64,000 bases of DNA from an uncultured Spirochaetota bacterium. Its GTDB lineage: Bacteria > Spirochaetota > UBA4802 > UBA5550. This document shows, piece by piece, positions 31,836 through 53,897 of this stretch (position 1 is its first letter; each line of letters begins with the position of its first letter). The position numbers were made by a program, and so were the translations under genes. Below the pieces are notes generated by a model. That model was not told the origin of the DNA. It worked only from the letters and a program-made list of their open reading frames with translations, and did not search any database. The stretch covers positions 160,001-224,000 of the forward strand of contig CAWHAA010000007.1 of the NCBI GenBank assembly GCA_963827275.1. Direction: 5' to 3'.

Positions 31836-33009
31836 ATGTTTAAACTAGAAGAAGAGAAGCCTTTAACCACGGTCATCAAGGTGGTCGGTGTCGGCGGCGC
31901 CGGGTGCAACGCGGTTAACAGGATGATCGCCACCGGCATGGAAGGCGTCGAGTTCATCGTGGCGAATACCGACGCCCAGCAGCTCAGGGACAGCCTTGCG
32001 CCGAACAAGATCCAGATCGGGACGAAGCTCACCCGCGGTCTCGGGGCGGGAGCGGACCCGGGAGTCGGCCGCGAGGCCGCGCAGGAGGACCGGGACAAGA
32101 TCCACAAGGCGCTGAAGGGAGCCGACATGGTGTTCATCACCGCAGGCATGGGCGGCGGCACCGGCACCGGCGCGGCCCCGATCGTTGCTGAAGTGGCCAA
32201 GGAGCTTTCGGCCCTGGTGGTCGGCGTGGTGACCAAGCCCTTCAAGGTGGAAGGGAAGAAACGGCTCAGCCAGGCCGAGGCAGGCATCGCCAACCTGAAA
32301 GAGAAGGTGGACACCCTCATTACGATACACAATGACTTATTACTGAAAATTATCGACCGCCGCACCCCGATCGAGGACGCTTTCAAGCTCGCTGACGATA
32401 TTTTACGGCAGGGCGTGCAGGGTATCGCTGACCTGATCATGGTGACCGGGCTCGTGAACGTCGATTTCGCCGATGTCCGGACCGTGATGAGGGAGACCGG
32501 CGACGCGCTCATGGGCGTCGGGCATCGGCACCGGCGAGAACAAGGCGCTCGAAGCGACCCAGCAGGCGATCAACAGCCCGCTCCTTGAGGAGACCAGCAT
32601 CGAGGGCGCCAAGGCGGTCCTCATCAATATCGCCGGCGGCAACGACCTCTCCCTTCACGAGGTGAACGAGGTCACGGACGTCATTACCCGCCAGGTCGAT
32701 CCCGAGGCGAACATCATTTTCGGGACCACCATCGATCCGGCCCTTTCCGACCGGGTGCGGGTCACCGTGATCGCGACCGGCTTCGACCGGCGCAGGAACA
32801 TGATCAACCGCGGCGGGAGCCAGCAGGCGCAGGCCGAGCCGCGGAACGGCACCTCGCTCACGCTGATCGAGGGGAGCCAGAGCAGGCCCGAGAAGCGGAT
32901 GCCGGCCGGCATGCAGACCTTCTCCCTTGATTATGAGCGCAAGCGCACCCGCGACTATCAGAACGAAGACCTGGACATACCGGCATTTTTACGCAGGGGA
33001 GTCGAGTAG
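31836..33009 (+). CDS. ftsZ: Cell division protein FtsZ (indel near 32522)
   Basis: [27 protein letters not shown]-terminal LDIPAFLRR. Confidence 0.97.
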
Positions 33010-36438: not shown

Positions 36439-36657
36439 GCCCCTTATCGGATACGCACCGGCATATTTGGCAACAATTTTTTTTCAACCCGAACAGACGT
36501 TTTGGCGATACTCGATGCGATCGTGTCGCGTGCTTATTGTTATTTTCGCAATTTAATATTTGACACCTGCGGGAGGATGTATCATACTCTGCACCCTGTT
36601 GTCAGCGAGGGCGCATCCCGACCGTCTTCTATCCAGTATGAATGCGAGGTGTTGTCA

Positions 36658-37380
36658 ATGATTGGAAAATATTTCAAGGATTTCGACAAGAAAATTCTCA
36701 AGATAAAAAAGCCCGTTGCCGGCGCCCAGGAGGGGAAGGGAAAAACCGTCACGCGCGCTTCGGTGGACCTGCGCATGATGAAGGAGAGCCTCTCGAAAAT
36801 CGTTCCCTCCCGCCTGAAAGTTGATTCCGTCAAACCGATTGACTCTTCTGGCTTTTCGCCCGAAGGGGTGGACCTTGTGGTCTATGAAGAGTATTGCCAG
36901 GATATGCTGGAGCTGATGGGAGGACATGTGCCGTCCGAGCTCCTGTACGGGATGTTCCACATCGTGCCGAACCTTACCAAAGAATCATTGACCGAGGTAT
37001 TGAACAAGGTCGCGACAGCGAAAAAACTGAACATGTACGCCGCATTACCCGAGGAAGAAGGGACGATGTCGCATATCCCGTCCTTTATTATCGCTGCTTC
37101 CTCCAAGTACCAGTTCAGCGAGCTCAAAAACGATATAATCAATTACTACCTTTCGAAAAATACCGGGTACCGTCATGAACTAGACATCCTCATGATCATG
37201 CACAAGGGGATCGTGGTGAAGAACTGGCGCGAGAAGCGGAGTTTTATCGCTCTTGAGACGAAAGAAGACACCTTTATGTGGTTTTTCATCCTCATGAACG
37301 AGTATCTTGACCAGAAAAAGGAGACGGCGATCGATTTCCGGAATTATGTCAAGAAAGATGTCATTTATAATGAATATTAG
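36658..37380 (+). CDS. Hypothetical protein, possibly degenerate PD-(D/E)XK / DUF6602-like fold
   Basis: ATG after GAGGTG. VDLVVYE..VPSELLYGMFHIV..L pattern. Confidence 0.65.
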   Translation: MIGKYFKDFDKKILKIKKPVAGAQEGKGKTVTRASVDLRMMKESLSKIVPSRLKVDSVKPIDSSGFSPEGVDLVVYEEYCQDMLELMGGHVPSELLYGMFHIVPNLTKESLTEVLNKVATAKKLNMYAALPEEEGTMSHIPSFIIAASSKYQFSELKNDIINYYLSKNTGYRHELDILMIMHKGIVVKNWREKRSFIALETKEDTFMWFFILMNEYLDQKKETAIDFRNYVKKDVIYNEY

Positions 37381-37455
37381 GCCTGTTGTCTGGCGAATCA
37401 TTGTAAATTTTCATTGTTTCTTTGAATTAAATTTTGTATAATTAGATTAATATTC

Positions 37456-37483
37456 TTGACATATTATAAATTATTGCTATTAT
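37456..37483 (+). promoter_or_regulatory. Sigma70-type promoter
   Basis: TTGACA, 16-bp spacer, TGcTATTAT, in AT-rich DNA upstream of the VWA gene. Confidence 0.5.
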
Positions 37484-37639
37484 TATTTAGCGACTCCGCA
37501 ATTATATTGTTGTTTGTTTCAATGACATATCTTTATTATAGATAAAAATGATAATCCCCTAACAAGAGATCCATTGTGGGGCGGGGATAGTGGAGTTATG
37601 GAAGTACCCGGAAATACAAAGAGGAGAACTATTTTGGGA

Positions 37640-38728
37640 ATGAAATCTTTAAAGGCGCTACTACCATTGCTAACGGTTTTGATGGCTGTCCAGTTAACAC
37701 TGGTGCCGAACGGTCTCATGGCAAAACAGAGCAAGGATATCATTCTGGTCCTTGACACTTCCATGAGCATGATCGGGCAGGACGGCGGACAGGACATCCT
37801 TGACAGGGTTAAAAAAAGCATCAGCGATTACATCGACCGTGTAGAGGACGGAGACCGCGTGACCTTCGTTACCTTTGATACCAGCGTAAGGATGTATCCC
37901 GGCGTGTTTGTCGATGACGACAATGACCGGGACATCCTGAAAAAATATATCTCCATGACCGAGGCCACCGGACTGTGGACCTATACCTACAAGATGGTAA
38001 CCACCGTGCTGGATTCGGCCGAAAAGCTTGACAATAAAGATAATCGGCAGACCGAGATCGTCATCATGACCGATGCGATCGATGACCCGCCTCCGGGTGA
38101 CAAGAAATTCAACTTTGCTGATTTTGCCGCCAAATACGGAAAAAAATCGAACATGTGGATTTATATCCTCAGCTTCAGCGATCTCGCCAAGAGCGAGGCA
38201 GCGAAGAAGATGGAGCGGGACCTCGGGCTGATCTCTGACAACGTGAAGATCATCCAGACCGGCGAACCGGAAAAGGCGAAGGAAGAGCTGCTCGCGGAGG
38301 AAAAGATACAGGAGGCGAAGGGGAGGAGCATTCTCTGCCCGATAATTATCGCTGCCGCCATAATACTGCTCCTTCTCGCGCTCCTTTTCTTCGTCAAGCG
38401 GTTGCAGGACCTGAAAGTCTCGGGAAAATTCGAGTACTGGAACAATGAGATCATTGAGCCGTATATGCAGCATTTTGACCTGGCCCGCAGGCCCGCCCGT
38501 GAGATCAATGTGGGCAAGGGGCTCGGGTGCCTGCTGAACATACGGGACATAGACATAAAGAGGCCCATCACCATTAAGGCGGTACGGCATGAAGGCGCGG
38601 TACGGATGGCGATTATCGACAATGACAGCGCCAGGGCCGAGATCGTGAATCGCGAGCCGGACGGCCTCCTCCAGGATGGCGATGTGTTTAAACTGGGGAA
38701 TTATACCTTTAAATACTTTGCGTCCTGA
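37640..38728 (+). CDS. Signal peptide + VWA + TM + degenerate FHA-like domain protein
   Basis: LVLDTSMSM MIDAS, WT, MTD. TM IIIAAAIILLLLALLFFV. C-terminal LQDGDVFKLGNYTFKY resembles an FHA domain end. Confidence 0.8.
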   Translation: MKSLKALLPLLTVLMAVQLTLVPNGLMAKQSKDIILVLDTSMSMIGQDGGQDILDRVKKSISDYIDRVEDGDRVTFVTFDTSVRMYPGVFVDDDNDRDILKKYISMTEATGLWTYTYKMVTTVLDSAEKLDNKDNRQTEIVIMTDAIDDPPPGDKKFNFADFAAKYGKKSNMWIYILSFSDLAKSEAAKKMERDLGLISDNVKIIQTGEPEKAKEELLAEEKIQEAKGRSILCPIIIAAAIILLLLALLFFVKRLQDLKVSGKFEYWNNEIIEPYMQHFDLARRPAREINVGKGLGCLLNIRDIDIKRPITIKAVRHEGAVRMAIIDNDSARAEIVNREPDGLLQDGDVFKLGNYTFKYFAS

Positions 38729-39029: not shown

Positions 39030-40988
39030 ATGGCTTTCACACAATTTCCTAAGAGTCCAAACAAGTTTCACCCGACCATTCCCAATGCCGTCGGTTCACA
39101 TGAATCATACGCGCAGGAAGGGCGTGACAAGATCGCCGAGCAGCGGCTCATCGTCAATGAAACCACGGATCGGGTCATAAACCAGGTCATATCCAAGATG
39201 CCAGAGGACGTTCTGGTCAAAATGGAAATCATGGGCGGTTTGAAGGAAAAGCTGTATAACTATATCAACCAGACCTACGTTAACATGTTCAACCGCTACA
39301 CGGTTACCATGGAAGACGAGTTCATGAAAAAGGTCAGGGACTTCGTTGACAAGGAAGAGCTCAGGGGCCTCGCCCGCTATACCCCGAGGGAGATAATCGA
39401 GCTCATGGACAAGATCGCCGGCCCGGACAAGTTCCACACTGGTGAAATCGAGAAATCGATCATCAACATGTATGGACACCTTCAGGGCCACATACAGCGG
39501 GGCGTCAACGACCTCGAAACAGAGACGAACTCGATCCTCCGCCAGAAGACTGACATCGGCGCTTTCGTCCGGGGCCAGAACGCATACGCCATATTAAAGT
39601 GCGTCTTCAAGGACAATGAATATCGTCCTAAATATGTATACGACGTCAAGCTTTCAATAAATATACTCGAGAGCGAGCTCATCAGCCCGATGTACCACTA
39701 CCAGGTGACCGTTGAGAATTTACTCAAAGACGCGATCCAGAAGCACGTACAGGACCTGATTGACCGCCAGGTGCAGGCCTTCAACGACGAGCTCGTCGAC
39801 CAGGGCAAGCGCGAGCTTACCGGAAGCGAAAAGCTGTTCGAGAAGATCAAGCGGATCGAAAACTTCACCGACGACGAGAAAGAGGACGAAAAATCGAAAC
39901 GCTACACCATCCTCGCCAAGAAGTTCCTGGACAAGATCGAGGGCCTCAGGGCCGAGATCGATGTCGAGGATTTCGATCCCCTCAATATCAGGGAAAATAT
40001 CAAGTACGTCATCGACGAAGAGAACGTGCGGAACCGGGGCTACAATACCGCGATCAACAACATCACCTCGATTCTCGACACCAGCAAGCTCGGCTACCAG
40101 GTGTGCAACAACATGAAAAACGCCAGGATATGCCATATCAGGGAATATGAAGAGACCGATACCTCCATCCTTCCGGATGAGCGGTATTCGATGAGGCTGG
40201 CGTTCTATGACCAGAACCAGCTCAAGGTCGAGAAAAAGGAATTCGACAAGCAAATGGACACCTTCTCCACCGAAATCAAGATGCTCTGGGATGTGTGCCA
40301 TGGCTACTACGAATCAAAGAAGCGTTTCCGCGCACTGAAGGACTTCGATGACCTGGCCAACAGGATCATGGCGAAAGACTGGAAACGCGCCAAGAAGGAG
40401 CGTGAAGAAGATCCTGAAACCATCCTCTGGAATGAAGTTGGCGAGATGTATCCGGAAGATTCGTTCGTAGAAAAGAACAACAGGACCTATGAACACCGGA
40501 TCGTAAATCTCAAGAACAAGCTGATCTATCTGAAAGATATGCTCCACAAGATGCATGGATTCCAGAACCCGGTGGAACGGGTCATCCTGGACGAGCGCAT
40601 CAGCTTTATGACCAAGCGGTTCAACGAGTTCACCTACAGGGTAAACCCGCACCATATTCAGCCGGGCCTGATCCTCGACATCGACATCGCAACGATCAAG
40701 AGGAAACAGTACATGCTGAAGGGCATGGCCAACGTTCTGAACGAATTCCTCTATGGCGTATCCAAGGGGTTCTCGGACGCAGCGTTCGCCCAGTACACGA
40801 GGCGCCGGTCGACCCAGAGGGAGGATATCGATCAGTCGTTTGCGGCCGAGGAAGTGGGCGCGAGCGTTATCGAAGAAGCCTACAGGGTTTCACAGCAAAG
40901 CCCCGGCAGCGAGATCAGCGGCGCTGTCAGCCTTTCGCCAAGGAGCGCGGCCAAGCCGGTGAAGAAATCCGGCCTGAAGGAACTGTAG
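39030..40988 (+). CDS. cfpA: Cytoplasmic filament protein A
   Basis: PKSPNKFHP..AVGS, MGGLKEKLYNY.NQ.Y.NMFNRY, TGEIEKS.INMYGHLQGHIQRGVN.LET match treponemal CfpA as recalled. AAGGAGG RBS. Confidence 0.9.
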   Translation: MAFTQFPKSPNKFHPTIPNAVGSHESYAQEGRDKIAEQRLIVNETTDRVINQVISKMPEDVLVKMEIMGGLKEKLYNYINQTYVNMFNRYTVTMEDEFMKKVRDFVDKEELRGLARYTPREIIELMDKIAGPDKFHTGEIEKSIINMYGHLQGHIQRGVNDLETETNSILRQKTDIGAFVRGQNAYAILKCVFKDNEYRPKYVYDVKLSINILESELISPMYHYQVTVENLLKDAIQKHVQDLIDRQVQAFNDELVDQGKRELTGSEKLFEKIKRIENFTDDEKEDEKSKRYTILAKKFLDKIEGLRAEIDVEDFDPLNIRENIKYVIDEENVRNRGYNTAINNITSILDTSKLGYQVCNNMKNARICHIREYEETDTSILPDERYSMRLAFYDQNQLKVEKKEFDKQMDTFSTEIKMLWDVCHGYYESKKRFRALKDFDDLANRIMAKDWKRAKKEREEDPETILWNEVGEMYPEDSFVEKNNRTYEHRIVNLKNKLIYLKDMLHKMHGFQNPVERVILDERISFMTKRFNEFTYRVNPHHIQPGLILDIDIATIKRKQYMLKGMANVLNEFLYGVSKGFSDAAFAQYTRRRSTQREDIDQSFAAEEVGASVIEEAYRVSQQSPGSEISGAVSLSPRSAAKPVKKSGLKEL

Positions 40989-41031
40989 GAGAATACGGCG
41001 CAGCAGGCCGATTCAACAACAATGAAATGAG

Positions 41032-41065
41032 GAGGCTGGCCCCGAGGGACCAGCCTCTTTTTTTT
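41032..41065 (+). terminator. Rho-independent terminator after cfpA
   Basis: GAGGCTGG..CCAGCCTC followed by T8. Confidence 0.85.
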
Positions 41066-41326
41066 CGGAGATGCCTCGTGCTTTCTCGCGATAGCTCTTT
41101 TCCCGGCTCGACGCTTGTTCGCGGCGGTTTTATTGATTTTTATCGTTACAAAATGCTTGCAATTATTGTAGCGGCTTTTATAGTATCAACCATGATCGGG
41201 GATGCTACAACCTTAAACGTGCAGTTTCATGGCCAGGTAAGAACACGGTCCCGGCTATAATTATAAATCATGCGCAACCCGGTTCGCGCATTTCCCCCCA
41301 ATAAACTCTGTCAAGGGAGCACTATA

Positions 41327-42235
41327 ATGGAAAGCACTTATCTGACTCTGGCTTCCAAATCAAATTTCAACAAGGCGCTCAGGCACTTTTACATGGTGAG
41401 CGGCGTCGTTGAGGAAGTCGAGATGAACAAGAACCTGGCCGATGTCATCAACGACGGGCTGGACGAAAATGAAATTCACGAAGACCAGATACTGCCGATC
41501 GTGGGGGCTGTTATCCGCGACAAGTACGCGTTCAGCTATGATTCCTACAATATCGTCGAGCCGGTCACGGAATTCCAGAGGATCGTTGACGAAACCGGCA
41601 AGTGGTCGGCCATCGACATCGTGTGCGTCTACTACAACCCCGGCGGCAAGGTGTGCCTCGTCAACCCGAAAAATATCGACCACTGGGAGCGCGTGCACGA
41701 ACTTCACCCCGACCAGCTCATGGTGATATACGCCAAGTACCTGAAGGAAGACAATAAAAAGATCGAGAATGCCGCGATCAGCACCCTCGAGGAGATGATT
41801 GCCGGAAAGGACGTGTTCATCAACAAGGCGTTCATCGACCAGACCGTGATCCAGCGCAAGGTCGTGAAAAAAGAGAAAAAGGTAGAAGACCAGGGAAAGG
41901 GGGCGGCAAACATCACCCCGAAATACGCCGTGGAAGTGTCAAACGAGCTTTTCCACAACGGCAACGTAGAGGCATGGAAGAAGATAATGGAAAGCTTCAT
42001 GACCACGTATCCCGACCTGAAGGTGTACATCTACCACGGCGGCGAACTGGTCAATGATATAAACTCCCTGTTCAAATGGGGGAAGGTAAAGCACGGCGAT
42101 TCCATATTTTTCCAGGTGGCCGGCGATAATATCAGGGGCGTTTCGAAGCTCCAGAAGTATTTCTACGAAGGTGCCAGCCCGCGCTTCGAGCAATTCCTCA
42201 AGATCGAGGTCGGCCAGGTGCTCAGGCTGTTCTAA
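41327..42235 (+). CDS. Hypothetical protein with C-terminal HPr-like domain
   Basis: ATG after AAGGGAG. C-terminal ~90 aa aligns by eye to HPr (VEVSNELFH..., NSLFK..., HGDSIFFQVAGDN). Confidence 0.75.
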   Translation: MESTYLTLASKSNFNKALRHFYMVSGVVEEVEMNKNLADVINDGLDENEIHEDQILPIVGAVIRDKYAFSYDSYNIVEPVTEFQRIVDETGKWSAIDIVCVYYNPGGKVCLVNPKNIDHWERVHELHPDQLMVIYAKYLKEDNKKIENAAISTLEEMIAGKDVFINKAFIDQTVIQRKVVKKEKKVEDQGKGAANITPKYAVEVSNELFHNGNVEAWKKIMESFMTTYPDLKVYIYHGGELVNDINSLFKWGKVKHGDSIFFQVAGDNIRGVSKLQKYFYEGASPRFEQFLKIEVGQVLRLF

Positions 42236-42272: not shown

Positions 42273-44882
42273 ATGGAAAATATAGTGTATTTTAATAAAA
42301 ACCTCAAGGAAGTGGACCCGAAGGTGCGGCAGCGGCTCGGCATTCGCGGGGGGAGGGCGGTCGACCTTGCCATGATGGGCCTGCCCATCGCGCCAGGCTT
42401 TATCATCGATTCACTTCTCACGCAGAAGCTGCCCCAGGTAAATTTAAAAGAGATACTGAGCACGCATATCGGCCAGCTCGAGAAAGACACAAAGAAGAAA
42501 TACGGGGACACGGAAAAGCCGCTCATGCTGAAAGTGGTGCTCAGCTCGGATCTGAACGTTCCCCACTTCCCGTCGATACACAACATCGGGATGAATGCCC
42601 AGACCGTGGAGGCGTTCGGTAAGTACACGGGGCGGGAATTCGCGTACGGCGAATACCTGTTCCTGATGAGGAACCTCGCGAAGAATATCTTCGAGGTGGA
42701 TACCACCGAGGTCAAAAAGATCGAGGCGAAGCTTGCCAGAAAAAGTGACGTCGAAGAGGTCAAGGCCGCCATCGAGGCATACCAGAAGCTGTTCGGTGAA
42801 AAATTCAGCGAAGACGTGTACGACCAGCTCAGCCTGATCATGAAGGCCGCATCGTCGCGGTACTGTGATTCGCCCATCGACGTGGACAATTCCCTGTCGA
42901 TCATGGTGCAGGTGATGGTGTACGGGACCTGGGGCAAGAATTCCTACGCGGGAAATTATTATACGAGGAACATCGTAACCGGCGACCCGGAAATACAGGG
43001 CGAATTCGGGCAGGGCGAGTTTGACATCCAGGCGGGAAAAGCCAGGGACATCTCCAAAATCGAGAAGAAGCACTATGACCATTTCACCGAGATCGCACGG
43101 AAGGTGGAGGACAACTTCAAGGAGATACGCGAGATAAAATTCACCATTGAAGAGAGCGATTTCTGGCTCGTCGAGCAGAAGGAGGTTGACGAGAAGTCGA
43201 CCCAGTCGCAGATAAAGGCACTGCTCGACCTGACGAGGAGAAAGATCGTCACCGATACCTATACAATAGCGAAGATAAAGCCGAACCAGCTCAATGAGCT
43301 CCTCCACCCGGTCATCGATCCCCGGACGATCAAGGGAATAAAGAGCATAAAGGGAGGGATTGCCGGCTCCACCGGCGCCGCCATCGGACGGGTGTTCTTT
43401 TCGACGCCGAAGCTCCTCGAGGAGCACAAGCGCGCGATCATGAAGGGCGGTGACCCGAAGCTCATACTGGTCATGCCCGCGTCGTTCGCCGAGGACGTGA
43501 AGGCCATCGAGGTGGCGCAGGGCGTTATCACGTGCGAGGGGGGGTTCTCGTCCCACGCGCCGGTCGTCGCCCGGAGCCTCGGCAAGGTCGCCATGGTGCA
43601 GCCGGAGATGAAGATCAAGGGCGACAGCTTCACGCTCGCCGGAAAGACCGTCCGAGAGGGCGACTACGTGTCGATCAATGTCCCCTACTACGAGGCCCCC
43701 ACCATCTTCATGGGAGAGGTCGGCCTTATCGAACCGGATTGGAAGAAGAACGGGCTCTTCGAGTTCCTTGACTTGGTGGAAAAGCATATCGGCGATTTCA
43801 ACGTGCGCGCCAACGCCGACCAGGGCAGGGACGCACTCGTCGCGAAGGACTTCAAGGCGAAGGGGATCGGACTCTGCCGGACCGAGCACATGTTCTTCAA
43901 CGAAAAGCGGATCATGAAATTCCGCGAAATGATTATCGCCGGCACTGAAGAGGAGCGGCGCAAGGTGCTGAAGGCGCTCCTCCCGATGCAGCGGTCCGAT
44001 TTTTACGACCTGTTCAAGATCATGGAGGGAAACCCGGTGACCATTCGCCTGCTCGACGCGCCGCTCCATGAATTCCTGCCCAGGACAGACGAGAGCATGA
44101 ATATATTCGTCCGGTACATGCAGGCAAAGGAACCCAAACTCAAAGCGCAGGATATCATCGCGCGTTGCGAGGAGCTGGGCGAGATGAATCCCATGCTGGG
44201 CCACCGGGGCTGCCGCGTGGCGGTGACCTACCCGGAGATTTACGAGATGCAGTGCAGGGCCATATTCGAGGCCGCCTGCATGTTGCGGAAAGAAGGCCAC
44301 AAGATAAAGCCGGAGATAATGATCCCGATCGTCATGAGCAAGGAGGAGATCAAGTTCATAAAGAACGGGAAGAAGATAGAGGGCAAGGAGGTAAAGGGTA
44401 TCCGGGACATCAAGAACGAGGTGGTCGAGGATTACGGCATCGAGGATCTCGACTACGAGGTGGGGACCATGATAGAGCTCCCGGCCGCTGCCCTCGGGGC
44501 CGGCGAGATCGCCCAGTATGCCGAATTCTTCAGCTTCGGCACCAATGACCTGACGCAGACGACCTACGGGCTGTCGCGGGACGACTCGAACTCGTTTTTC
44601 CCGAGCTATTCGCTCTTTGACCTCATGAAGTCGAACCTGTTCAAGTACCTTGGCGACGAGGTGAAGGAGCTGATCGGAATCGCGTCTTTGCGGGGAAGGC
44701 TGTCGCGGCCCGATATAAAGATGGGGCTGTGCGGGGAGCACGGCGCCAGTCCGGAAAATATTCAGTTCTGCATGGAGGCGGGGCTCAATTACGTGTCCTG
44801 CTCGCCGTACGCGATACCGCTGGCCAAGCTGGGGATCGCGCAGATCAATATAAAGAACACCCAGAAGCAGGGAGCGGCATAG
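42273..44882 (+). CDS. Pyruvate phosphate dikinase homologue with degenerate ATP-grasp domain
   Basis: GGFSSHAPVVAR, GIGLCRTEHMFF, IRLLD.PLHEFLP, NPMLGHRGCR, FSFGTNDLTQ and GLCGEHG are intact. N-terminal nucleotide-site motifs are substituted. Confidence 0.88.
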   Translation: MENIVYFNKNLKEVDPKVRQRLGIRGGRAVDLAMMGLPIAPGFIIDSLLTQKLPQVNLKEILSTHIGQLEKDTKKKYGDTEKPLMLKVVLSSDLNVPHFPSIHNIGMNAQTVEAFGKYTGREFAYGEYLFLMRNLAKNIFEVDTTEVKKIEAKLARKSDVEEVKAAIEAYQKLFGEKFSEDVYDQLSLIMKAASSRYCDSPIDVDNSLSIMVQVMVYGTWGKNSYAGNYYTRNIVTGDPEIQGEFGQGEFDIQAGKARDISKIEKKHYDHFTEIARKVEDNFKEIREIKFTIEESDFWLVEQKEVDEKSTQSQIKALLDLTRRKIVTDTYTIAKIKPNQLNELLHPVIDPRTIKGIKSIKGGIAGSTGAAIGRVFFSTPKLLEEHKRAIMKGGDPKLILVMPASFAEDVKAIEVAQGVITCEGGFSSHAPVVARSLGKVAMVQPEMKIKGDSFTLAGKTVREGDYVSINVPYYEAPTIFMGEVGLIEPDWKKNGLFEFLDLVEKHIGDFNVRANADQGRDALVAKDFKAKGIGLCRTEHMFFNEKRIMKFREMIIAGTEEERRKVLKALLPMQRSDFYDLFKIMEGNPVTIRLLDAPLHEFLPRTDESMNIFVRYMQAKEPKLKAQDIIARCEELGEMNPMLGHRGCRVAVTYPEIYEMQCRAIFEAACMLRKEGHKIKPEIMIPIVMSKEEIKFIKNGKKIEGKEVKGIRDIKNEVVEDYGIEDLDYEVGTMIELPAAALGAGEIAQYAEFFSFGTNDLTQTTYGLSRDDSNSFFPSYSLFDLMKSNLFKYLGDEVKELIGIASLRGRLSRPDIKMGLCGEHGASPENIQFCMEAGLNYVSCSPYAIPLAKLGIAQINIKNTQKQGAA

Positions 44883-50908: not shown

Positions 50909-53897
50909 ATGCTGCGCGCACGGTATCGAATTGAAGTATTTCACCGGGGGAGCGATCCCCGCTGTGAAGTCATGCGGAAAAAGCTTGCGGGCCTCGGGTA
51001 CCCCGTGCGCGGGGTGCACATCTCCGACAATTTCCTGATTAACGCCGATTTCGACGAGGGCCGCGCCCGCGATGTGGCCGGCCTCCTGGTGCAGCCGGTG
51101 ATACAGGATTGCCTGATCAACCGGCCCTATCGCCCCGATGATTTTGATGTGGCGCTCGAAATCGGCTTTCTCCCCGGCGTCACTGACAACGTGGCGCACA
51201 CCGTCCGGGAATCGATCGAGGACCTGCTGAAAGTCCGCCTTGACATTGAAAAATCCGTTTTTACCACGATAACCTATTTTTTTTCCGGCGACCTGACCGC
51301 CGGGGAGATCGAGAACATCGGCGCGGAGCTGCATAATCCCCTGATACAGCGGCGCAAGGCGCTCTCCGCGAAGGAGTATGACGGCGCGTCCGGCATGGGG
51401 CATGAAATACCGGTGGTGAGCATCCACGAACGACCGGAGGCCGACGAGGTGGACCTGGACGTACCGGAAGAAGAGCTGATGAAGATAGCGAAAGAAGGCC
51501 TGCCGGAGCGGGGGGGCGGCAGGCGGGGGCCGCTGGCCCTGGACATGCTCTCAATGGAAACGATCCGTGACTATTTCCTGAAAGCGGAAAAGAGAAATCC
51601 GACCGATATCGAGCTCGAGTCGATCGCCCAGACCTGGAGCGAGCACTGCAAGCATACCATCTTCGCCGCGGAGATGGATGATGATATCCCGGAGGGCGTG
51701 TTCAAGCGCTATATACGCGAGGCCACGGTGAAGATCAGGCGCGAAATGGGCGACCGCGACTTCTGCGTCTCCGTGTTCGAGGACAACTCGGGCGGCATCC
51801 GGTTCGACGACAATTACATAATTTCGGACAAGGTGGAGACCCACAACAGCCCCAGCGCCCTCGACCCGTTCGGCGGCGCGATAACCGGCATCGTGGGCGT
51901 AAACAGGGACGCGATCGGGTTCGGCATGGCCGCGAAGCCGGTCGCCAACCGGTACGGCTTCTGCTTCGCCGACCCGTCCGACCGGAAGCCCCTGTACAAG
52001 AGCAGAGACGCTTCCGGGAAAATGCTGTCGCCGCGCCGGATCATGGAGGGGGTCGTGCATGGGGTGAACGCGGGCGGCAACACCTCCGGCATCCCCACGC
52101 CGCAGGGCTTCCTCTATTTCGACGAGCGGTACAAGGGAAAGCCGCTGGTGTTCGTCGGCACGGTGGGACTCATGCCGATGTACGTGAACGGCAAGTCGTC
52201 GTGCTCGAAGCGCGCCATGCCGGGCGACGCCATCGTCATGATCGGCGGTCGCGTCGGCCGGGACGGCATACACGGCGCGACCTTCTCCTCGGAGGCGCTT
52301 TCGTCCGGGAGCCCGGCCACCGCGGTCCAGATCGGGGACCCGATCACGCAGAAAAAGCTCTCTGACGCCATCGTCAAGGAAGCGCGTGACCGCGGGCTGT
52401 ACAATTCCATAACCGATAACGGCGCCGGCGGGCTCTCCTGCTCGGTCGCCGAGATGGCGCGCGAATGCGGCGGCTTCGAGGTCGACCTTGACCGGGTGCC
52501 GCTGAAGTACCCCGGCCTCGGCCCGTGGCAGATCTGGGTCAGCGAGTCGCAGGAGCGGATGACCGCCTCCGTGCCGGATGACCGGCTGGAGGAATTCATC
52601 GCCCTGATGAACGCCCGGGGCGTTGAGGCCACCGTGATCGGCAGGTTTACCGACGGGAAGCGCGGCACCGTGCGGCACGCAGGGAAAAAGATCTTCGACC
52701 TGGACATGTCCTTCCTCCACGACGGACTCCCGCGGAAGAAGCTCCGGACGTCGTATGTGAAAAAGTCGAACCCCTACCCGGAATTTCCGGAGCCCGCCGA
52801 CCTGACCGCGGTCTTCAACGAGATGGCGGGCAGGCTGAACACGGCCAGCTTCGAGTTCGTCTCCACCCAGTATGACCACGAGGTGCAGGGAAATTCCGTC
52901 ATAAAGCCGCTGCAGGGCAGGGGCAGGGTGAACGGGAACGCCACGGTGATACGCCCCCTCCTCGACTCGTACCGGGGCGTGGTGCTCTCGCAGGGGCTCT
53001 ATCCTTCGTACGGCGATATCGACACCTACCGGATGGCCGCCTGCTCCATCGATACCGCGGTGCGCAACGCGGTCGCCGCGGGCGGACGGCTGGACTCGCT
53101 GGCGATACTGGACAATTTCTGCTGGTGCGACTCCGAACAATCCCGAGCGCCTGGGACAGCTCCGGGAGGCGGCGCGGGCCTGCTATGAGTACGCCGTGGC
53201 GTACCGGACGCCCTTCATTTCGGGCAAGGACAGCATGTTCAACGATTTCCGGGGGTATGACGAGAATTTCAACGAGGTCTTCATCTCAATCCCGCCCACG
53301 CTCCTCGTCTCCTCGATCGGGGTGGTTGACGATGTCCGCGCGTGCCAGACCATCGACTTCAAGTGTGCCGGCGACCTGGTCTACGTCGCCGGGATGACGG
53401 ATGACGAAACCGGGGGGAGCGAGTACCTGGCCTGCATGGGTGAAAAGCTTTCGGGCAGGCGCTACATCGGCGACGCGGCCCCGGGGGTATCGGCGGAAGA
53501 CAACATCAGGACCTACCGGGCGCTGGAAAACGCGCTCGCGAAGGGGCTCGTGGCGTCCAGCGCGAGCGTCGAGCGGGGCGGCCTCGGCCTCGCCCTGGCG
53601 AAGTCGGCGCTGGCGGGCATGCTCGGCGTCGCGGTCGATTGCTCGAAGGTGCCGTCACGCACGCAGAGAAATGACGCGATACTGTTCTCTGAATCGCAGG
53701 GCAGGGTCCTCCTGTCCGTGAACCCGGCGCGCCGGGCTGAATTCGAGCACGTTTTTTCCGGCGTCCCGCTCGGGCTGCTTGGCAGCGTCACCGCCGATGC
53801 GGCGGTGACGGTCACGGGAACAAAGGGAAACACGATCGTGCGCACGGATATAGATTCGCTGATGAAATCATACAGGGGCGTTTTCAAGGATTTTTAA
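50909..53897 (+). CDS. purL: FGAM synthase large subunit with PurS-like N-terminal extension (indel near 53137)
   Basis: QTWSEHCKH, KVETHNSPS, GIHGATFSS, DNGAGG, SESQERM, ISGKDS, LFSES. Confidence 0.93.

Follow-up and report, generated by a model that had tools for sequence, protein, structure and literature searches.

TP0747-family proteins with two predicted HPr-like folds and a PPDK paralogue beside spirochaete cfpA: parts for a possible PEP-driven phosphorelay

In HPr, the acceptor His15 is located just before helix 1, and this loop and helix bind Enzyme I (EI), with residues 16, 17 and 20 making the most contact (excerpts of PMC8509676). Pyruvate, phosphate dikinase (PPDK) and EI resemble each other structurally in the step that moves phosphate from PEP to the His (excerpt of PMC5371819). 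The genes described here have orthologues, in the same gene order, in T. pallidum (TP0748 cfpA, TP0747 and TP0746 "ppdK") and in T. denticola (TDE0842-0844), where the three genes are reported to be repressed together (excerpt of PMC3914990). In the excerpts of the T. pallidum literature consulted, TP0747 either goes unmentioned or is called hypothetical, and TP0746 is taken as a working glycolytic PPDK, said most likely to produce pyruvate and ATP from PEP, AMP and PPi (PMC10013896); the main text of a paper on a T. pallidum metabolic model does not mention PPDK (PMC12097511). In the literature that we searched, mostly papers available without subscription, TP0747 occurred as a whole word in no paper, and there was no description of an HPr-like fold or a relay for the cfpA-TP0747-TP0746 genes.

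Here, we analysed a TP0747-family protein and the PPDK paralogue encoded after it in a 64,000-nt stretch of DNA from an uncultured Spirochaetota bacterium (contig CAWHAA010000007.1, positions 160,001 to 224,000), hereafter the window. The pair is real, conserved and undescribed in this literature, and a plausible mechanism can be proposed for it. In the reading that we favour, and that we hold about equally able to be right or wrong, phosphate would pass from PEP to His428 of the paralogue and on to His210 of a partner docked at the paralogue's remodelled N-terminal domain, in parallel to the PTS.

The cfpA-linked gene pair and its distribution

The 302-aa ORF starts with an ATG that follows a purine-rich ribosome-binding site at 41313-41319 (features of the locus are listed in Table 1). 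Translation of 41912-42190 on the forward strand agrees with the protein sequence quoted in the original prediction, and the CAC codon singled out there encodes His210. The protein has the N-terminal domain PF27497 (TP_0747_N), homology to TP0747 over its full length and a position after cfpA, and thus belongs to the TP0747 family. Among 3,812 candidates, 3,210 were relatives at E 0.001, nearly all of the named ones from spirochaetes, and PF27497 was detected in all 120 relatives among the matches listed. A freshwater-mussel assembly carries an annotated 841-aa "fusion" of CfpA with the TP0747 N-terminal part (P0239), which likely stems from a spirochaete contig given a eukaryotic gene model; this entry was set aside as evidence because neighbouring bacterial genes could have been merged during eukaryotic gene calling.

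Table 1. Positions of the features of the cfpA-linked locus in the window
Feature	Positions	Strand	Basis or remark
cfpA, cytoplasmic filament protein	39030..40988	+	NF040882, 877 bits vs cut-off 500
Terminator-like hairpin with U-run, 3' of cfpA	41029..41066	+	-26.2 kcal/mol, z -4.35
Weak match to a sigma-70-like promoter, 5' of the gene pair	41157..41184	+	consensus scan
TP0747-family gene, 302 aa	41327..42235	+	helical head, then a predicted HPr fold without the His, a linker and a predicted HPr fold with the His
N-terminal helical subdomain, residues 1-66	41327..41524	+	full-length model and conserved residues
First predicted HPr-fold domain, residues 69-161	41531..41809	+	structure match; NPK motif conserved; helix-1 start without His
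Linker, residues 172-195	41840..41911	+	low model confidence; length variable
Second predicted HPr-fold domain, residues 197-285, motif NELFHNGNVEAW	41915..42181	+	model, structure search, conservation
His210, codon CAC, candidate phospho-acceptor	41954..41956	+	directly before helix 1
PPDK paralogue, 869 aa, candidate donor	42273..44882	+	starts 37 bases downstream of the TP0747-family gene
His428 of the PPDK paralogue	43554..43556	+	equivalent to His455 of C. symbiosum PPDK

Since a strong U-run hairpin follows cfpA, the sequence suggests that the TP0747-family gene and the PPDK paralogue have their own transcript here, apart from cfpA. The hairpin is absent from the output of the consensus scan, and sigma-70-like promoter sites are found at chance level (6 found, 4.9 expected). 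On the 5' side of cfpA, at 36655-38728, are a DUF6602-like gene and a gene for a VWA membrane protein, which seem to be part of a wider cluster because look-alikes of both are present at another locus (L080), there after the TP0747-family gene instead; a single-query search of five distant genomes did not find the DUF6602-like gene. We also noted that several ORFs appear split or frame-shifted, both in the window (ftsZ-like, 31836-33009, and purL-like, 50909-53188) and elsewhere in the same genome (the canonical PPDK, L005, G000:C2:18844-21532, and PEP carboxykinase, G000:C8:310323-311409), probably reflecting assembly indels.

Across 121 genomes of the phylum that are at least 90% complete, the TP0747 family was present in 47, and the profile for the PPDK paralogue, at E 1e-250, detected the same 47. 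Judged by their coordinates, the two genes are adjacent in 44 of these and unlinked but retained in the others (G068, G075 and G089). cfpA was found in 46 of the 47 genomes, with the single miss at a contig end, and in none of the other genomes, and is directly upstream in 35, though such co-occurrence counts overstate independence because the 47 genomes are related. In a separate scan of 80 loci, the paralogue was directly downstream of the TP0747-family gene in 78 and cfpA upstream in 71. One genome (G005; C97, C69 and C102) has three full cfpA copies with one TP0747-family gene and one paralogue. As a canonical PPDK is also present in 46 of the 47 paralogue-bearing genomes, and EI and HPr in 121/121, the pair is an additional system beside PPDK and the PTS.

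Predicted HPr-like folds in the TP0747-family protein

A cryptic HPr-like domain had been predicted from the sequence of the C-terminal part of the protein, and this likeness is borne out by the predicted structure (below) and has no counterpart at the sequence level. The domain model (pLDDT 94.7, 111 sequences) has three helices on a four-stranded sheet in the order beta-alpha-beta-beta-alpha-beta-alpha, with His17 of the model, corresponding to His210, directly before the long helix 1 (18-34). In a structure search of 48,161 representative chains, the top four matches were all HPr (Z 7.5, 7.2, 6.8 and 6.5) and the next were unrelated folds with Z 6.0 and below, values that, by the tool's own caution for Z <8, may reflect a common arrangement. 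The best match covers the whole of HPr (rmsd 2.1 Å over 78 residues), and model residues 4-92 align, as ranges, to HPr 1-85, again with the His immediately before helix 1. With Foldseek, all matches of the domain model listed to rank 29 were HPr or Crh, at E values of at least 0.008 and thus none reaching 0.001. A fold unlike HPr had been named as the outcome that would speak against the prediction, while the predicted model matches HPr best.

By contrast with the structure, PF00381 did not match the 302-aa protein or the domain alone and was not one of the 25 families listed for the 76 orthologues, and a PF00381 search of the source genome detected only the true HPr, which is encoded elsewhere in that genome. 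Pfam, NCBIfam and PDB sequence searches gave no link to HPr, and an Atlas search with the domain alone returned one unnamed cluster at 0.83. Profile-profile comparison of the domain with 30 spirochaete HPrs gave a probability of 0.6% and a score of 13.6 (shuffled mean 10.4, maximum 18.2, n=100); despite a score within the shuffled range, the local register of this alignment is the expected one. The models thus support a C-terminal domain that is HPr-like by structure and not by sequence.

His210 is kept in all 121 close relatives, in 76/76 aligned orthologues (taken from genome loci and representing about two thirds of the available loci) and in 65 of 70 distant full-length representatives at 50% identity, with the five that lack it having drifted across the whole motif. 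The predicted conserved His at the His15 position, directly before helix 1, therefore stands for the orthologues from the loci, and the variation that would weaken it is seen only among the distant representatives. The invariant columns of the domain, N-E-x-F-H-N-G-N-V-E-x-W-K and N-x-L-F-x-W-G-K-V-K, are concentrated near His210, in the loop and in helix 1, and in a helix-2 segment. In place of the H-x-R-P of HPr, all 76 orthologues have H-N-G-N, such that Arg17 and Pro18, invariant in the 30 spirochaete HPrs, are Gly and Asn here. The assignment of SLFK to the Ser46 region did not survive: position 247 is Ala in 30, Ser in 27 and Thr in 19 of the 76 orthologues, and an alternative register places Asp244 (Asp in 72, Asn in 4) at the Ser46 position. 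Given that position 247 is not conserved and that, on the model, the helix-2 cap may be Asp244, we see no conserved Ser46. By analogy with HPr, His210 may accept phosphate.

The phosphate could conceivably come from the ordinary PTS, with EI or HPr phosphorylating His210 and the protein then regulating or donating to the paralogue, so that the relay would run inward. EI and HPr are available in every genome surveyed, and even the divergent EI of a genome discussed below (G088) keeps its catalytic residues. However, the positions that make the main contacts to EI (16, 17 and 20) are not HPr-like here, and the TP0747 family tracks the paralogue (47/47) and not EI, which makes this source of phosphate quite improbable.

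The N-terminal part of the protein, initially read as an unknown domain, is the Pfam domain TP_0747_N (PF27497), and its residues 69-161 are predicted to form another HPr fold. In the model of the full-length protein (pLDDT 91.6), a helical head (residues 1-66) is followed by this fold and a disordered linker. Residues 69-161 match E. coli HPr with Z 9.1 and an rmsd of 1.8 Å over 80 residues, and their best five structural matches are all HPr or NPr. This first fold has no His at the acceptor position, its NPK motif is conserved, and at the sequence level the two folds do not resemble one another (score 12.7; mean after shuffling 11.4). The linker, for which a Lys-rich composition had been claimed, has Lys at 6 of 24 positions here and pLDDT <50 at residues 185-191, but across the 76 orthologues it is better described as Ala/Lys/Pro-rich, with a length of 19-66 residues. 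Conserved residues of the head are Asn15, His20, Asn36 and Asp39. His20 (window 41384-41386), a second His that is mid-helix and present in 75/76 orthologues, could with the other three possibly form a ligand site or a second acceptor. A weak match between NusA and the N-terminal part (E 0.19) and Foldseek rows for berberine-bridge enzyme (rmsd ~19 Å) were dismissed as chance.

The presence of a His-less HPr fold that matches HPr better than the His-bearing one could also be understood if the protein were a non-phosphorylated adaptor, comparable to Crh or to HPr on glycogen phosphorylase, with both folds docking and either tethering the paralogue to the filament or tuning it, and His210 serving as a binding or capping residue. 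The absence of Arg17 and Pro18, the existence of His-less relatives and the occurrence of HPr from regulatory complexes among the best structural matches all fit such a role. We nevertheless find it doubtful, as it leaves unexplained both why the His at precisely the acceptor position of HPr is invariant and why 109/109 paralogues, without an evident second substrate, retain their His and the whole PEP site.

A PPDK paralogue with an altered ATP site

The candidate donor scored below the cut-offs of both the PPDK model TIGR01828 (680.8 bits, cut-off 843.45) and the EI model TIGR01417 (107.5 bits, cut-off 341.7). The N-terminus of the paralogue aligns to the nucleotide domain of PPDK and not to the helical HPr-binding N-terminal domain of EI. 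Using residue numbers from an alignment to C. symbiosum PPDK (1KBL), we compared 109 full-length copies, one from the window and the rest from 108 loci in which some genomes are represented twice (ORFs <840 aa dropped), with 20 canonical PPDKs encoded in these genomes. The swivel His and the PEP/pyruvate site are intact in all 109 paralogues, which keep the equivalents of His455, Arg561, Glu563, Arg617, Asp620, Arg666, Glu745, Asn768, Asp769 and Cys831.

The ATP-grasp domain is different. Among the residues that we take to be functional there, Arg92 is Val in 109/109 paralogues, Glu323 is replaced by Lys (91), Arg (15) or Met (3), and the six commonest residues at the Arg337 position (105 of 109 paralogues) do not include Arg. 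Lys22, for which a role in this domain is cited in an excerpt of PMC4844700, is Arg in 109/109. All four residues are kept in 20/20 canonical PPDKs. Gln335 is retained in the paralogue, the SGA-SMPG loop and the AQGED motif are replaced, and the former ATP site has invariant residues of its own (Arg25, Val89, Gln213 and Gln302). From the combined changes at the ATP site we infer a loss of dikinase activity, and go no further than this since the Mg-binding Glu is dispensable in rifampin phosphotransferase (RPH; excerpt of PMC4844700).

A quick unrooted tree without an outgroup, covering 38 of the paralogues and the 20 canonical enzymes, splits the two groups with full support. The Thr of the GGxTSH motif (window 43548-43556), which in PPDK is the regulatory phosphorylation site, is Ser in 94 and Ala in 15 of the 109 paralogues. 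At loci L134, L137 and L147-L150 the paralogue is ~965 aa, ~95 residues longer than here.

A complete genome of 1.1 Mb (G088), whose two proteins are identical to the entries Y747_TREPA and PPDK_TREPA and whose TP0747 protein carries the full His motif, has the paralogue only; a canonical PPDK was not found in it, nor was pyruvate kinase, which is present in four of the five genomes tested. It does have a GTP-type PEP carboxykinase, another exit from PEP. The EI-like frame of this genome (L176, G088:C1:624900-627600) scores barely above the cut-off, in three pieces. We rejected the idea that EI is a dead gene in T. pallidum, which would have left the paralogue as the sole donor, as this frame is open over 711 codons and all six catalytic positions checked are kept. 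Judged by its residues, the T. pallidum "PPDK" TP0746 is the paralogue, in the clade without the usual ATP-site residues, a pattern that argues against TP0746 as an ATP-yielding PEP-to-pyruvate enzyme.

The metabolism of this genome is relevant to another possibility, that the paralogue still acts on small molecules, its acceptor site having been rebuilt to transfer phosphate from PEP to ADP, AMP, Pi or another metabolite, with the TP0747-family protein as an accessory or substrate-binding subunit comparable to the HPr-like subdomains of RPH. The lack of pyruvate kinase and of a canonical PPDK in G088 speaks for a metabolic function of some kind in this genome, though its PEP carboxykinase offers an alternative route out of PEP. 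The substitutions in the N-terminal domain of the paralogue are also fixed and not random, ppdK is reported to be highly expressed in T. pallidum (excerpt of PMC8525777), and RPH has an HPr-like arm (excerpt of PMC4844700). On the other hand, canonical PPDK in 46/47 genomes and pyruvate kinase in all but one of those tested speak against such an enzyme, and its strict coupling to cfpA would be unexpected for a housekeeping function. We therefore consider this possibility unlikely.

A possible relay and its relation to known systems

The PEP-to-His428-to-His210 relay that we favour would proceed as follows. With its intact PEP site and His, the paralogue would serve as a private EI that binds PEP and phosphorylates its own His428. 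With its ATP-site residues replaced, as observed, it would not be able to complete the dikinase cycle. The remodelled N-terminal domain would dock the HPr-like domain, allowing His428 to hand its phosphate to His210. The phosphorylation state, read via the head and the His-less HPr fold, would then inform the CfpA filament, or proteins partnering with it, of the PEP/pyruvate status. Gene neighbourhood, co-occurrence and the joint repression of TDE0842-0844 suggest that the relay would probably serve the filament; the step to CfpA, drawn from only the first two of these, is the weakest. A fuller version, in which filament-bearing spirochaetes turned a PPDK duplicate into an EI-like protein kinase and so gained a second, private PEP-driven relay, its dead ATP-grasp domain being the dock for the tandem-HPr protein and phospho-His coupling the glycolytic PEP level to the CfpA cytoskeleton, with T. 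pallidum left without any working PPDK, is put forward tentatively.

Several observations count against the relay. The motif is H-N-G-N and not H-x-R-P, sequence similarity to HPr is lacking and 5/70 distant representatives have no His. The Lys-to-Arg change is conservative, and the former ATP site, having invariant residues of its own, could still bind nucleotide. In the window, cfpA is set off from the pair by a likely terminator, and no more than 35/47 genomes have cfpA immediately upstream.

The relay nonetheless provides a concrete, testable mechanism for uncharacterised neighbours of a spirochaete cytoskeleton gene. If it is true, the ppdK of the syphilis bacterium is misnamed, and a PTS-type relay would have been assembled from other parts, a PPDK scaffold and tandem HPr folds, with a cytoskeletal and not a transport output. 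Independent of the relay, how T. pallidum leaves PEP, with neither pyruvate kinase nor a canonical PPDK found in its genome, becomes a testable question.

Compared with HPr, Crh and NPr, the His-bearing domain has the same predicted open-faced beta-sandwich, order of elements, His before helix 1 and conserved face around the His, but differs in having no PF00381 match, H-N-G-N and no conserved Ser46. It is also part of a 302-aa protein with tandem folds, a helical head and a C-terminal tail, and the true HPr of the source genome is a different protein, encoded beside HprK. As in EI and EI-Ntr with HPr or NPr, a PEP-binding barrel and a swivel His are found beside an HPr-fold protein, the parts needed for PEP-His-His transfer; here, however, the donor is PPDK-built, with the remodelled ATP-grasp domain in place of the helical HPr-binding domain of EI, and the linked gene is cytoskeletal, with no adjacent EIIA or permease. 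The paralogue shares with PPDK (TIGR01828; 1KBL) the three-domain length, the His and the PEP-site residues, whereas it falls below the family cut-off, has replaced ATP-site residues and loops and Ser or Ala for the regulatory Thr, and forms a separate clade. The pair would function like EI with HPr, yet belongs to neither of these families; nor does the paralogue pass as a PPDK. PPDK/PEPS-type swivel-His enzymes have likewise been repurposed for new acceptors or regulation in VadK (M. tuberculosis Rv1127c; excerpt of PMC13400623) and RPH (excerpt of PMC4844700), but there the ATP domain is retained and the PEP domain lost or exchanged, an arrangement of which the paralogue described here would be the mirror image.
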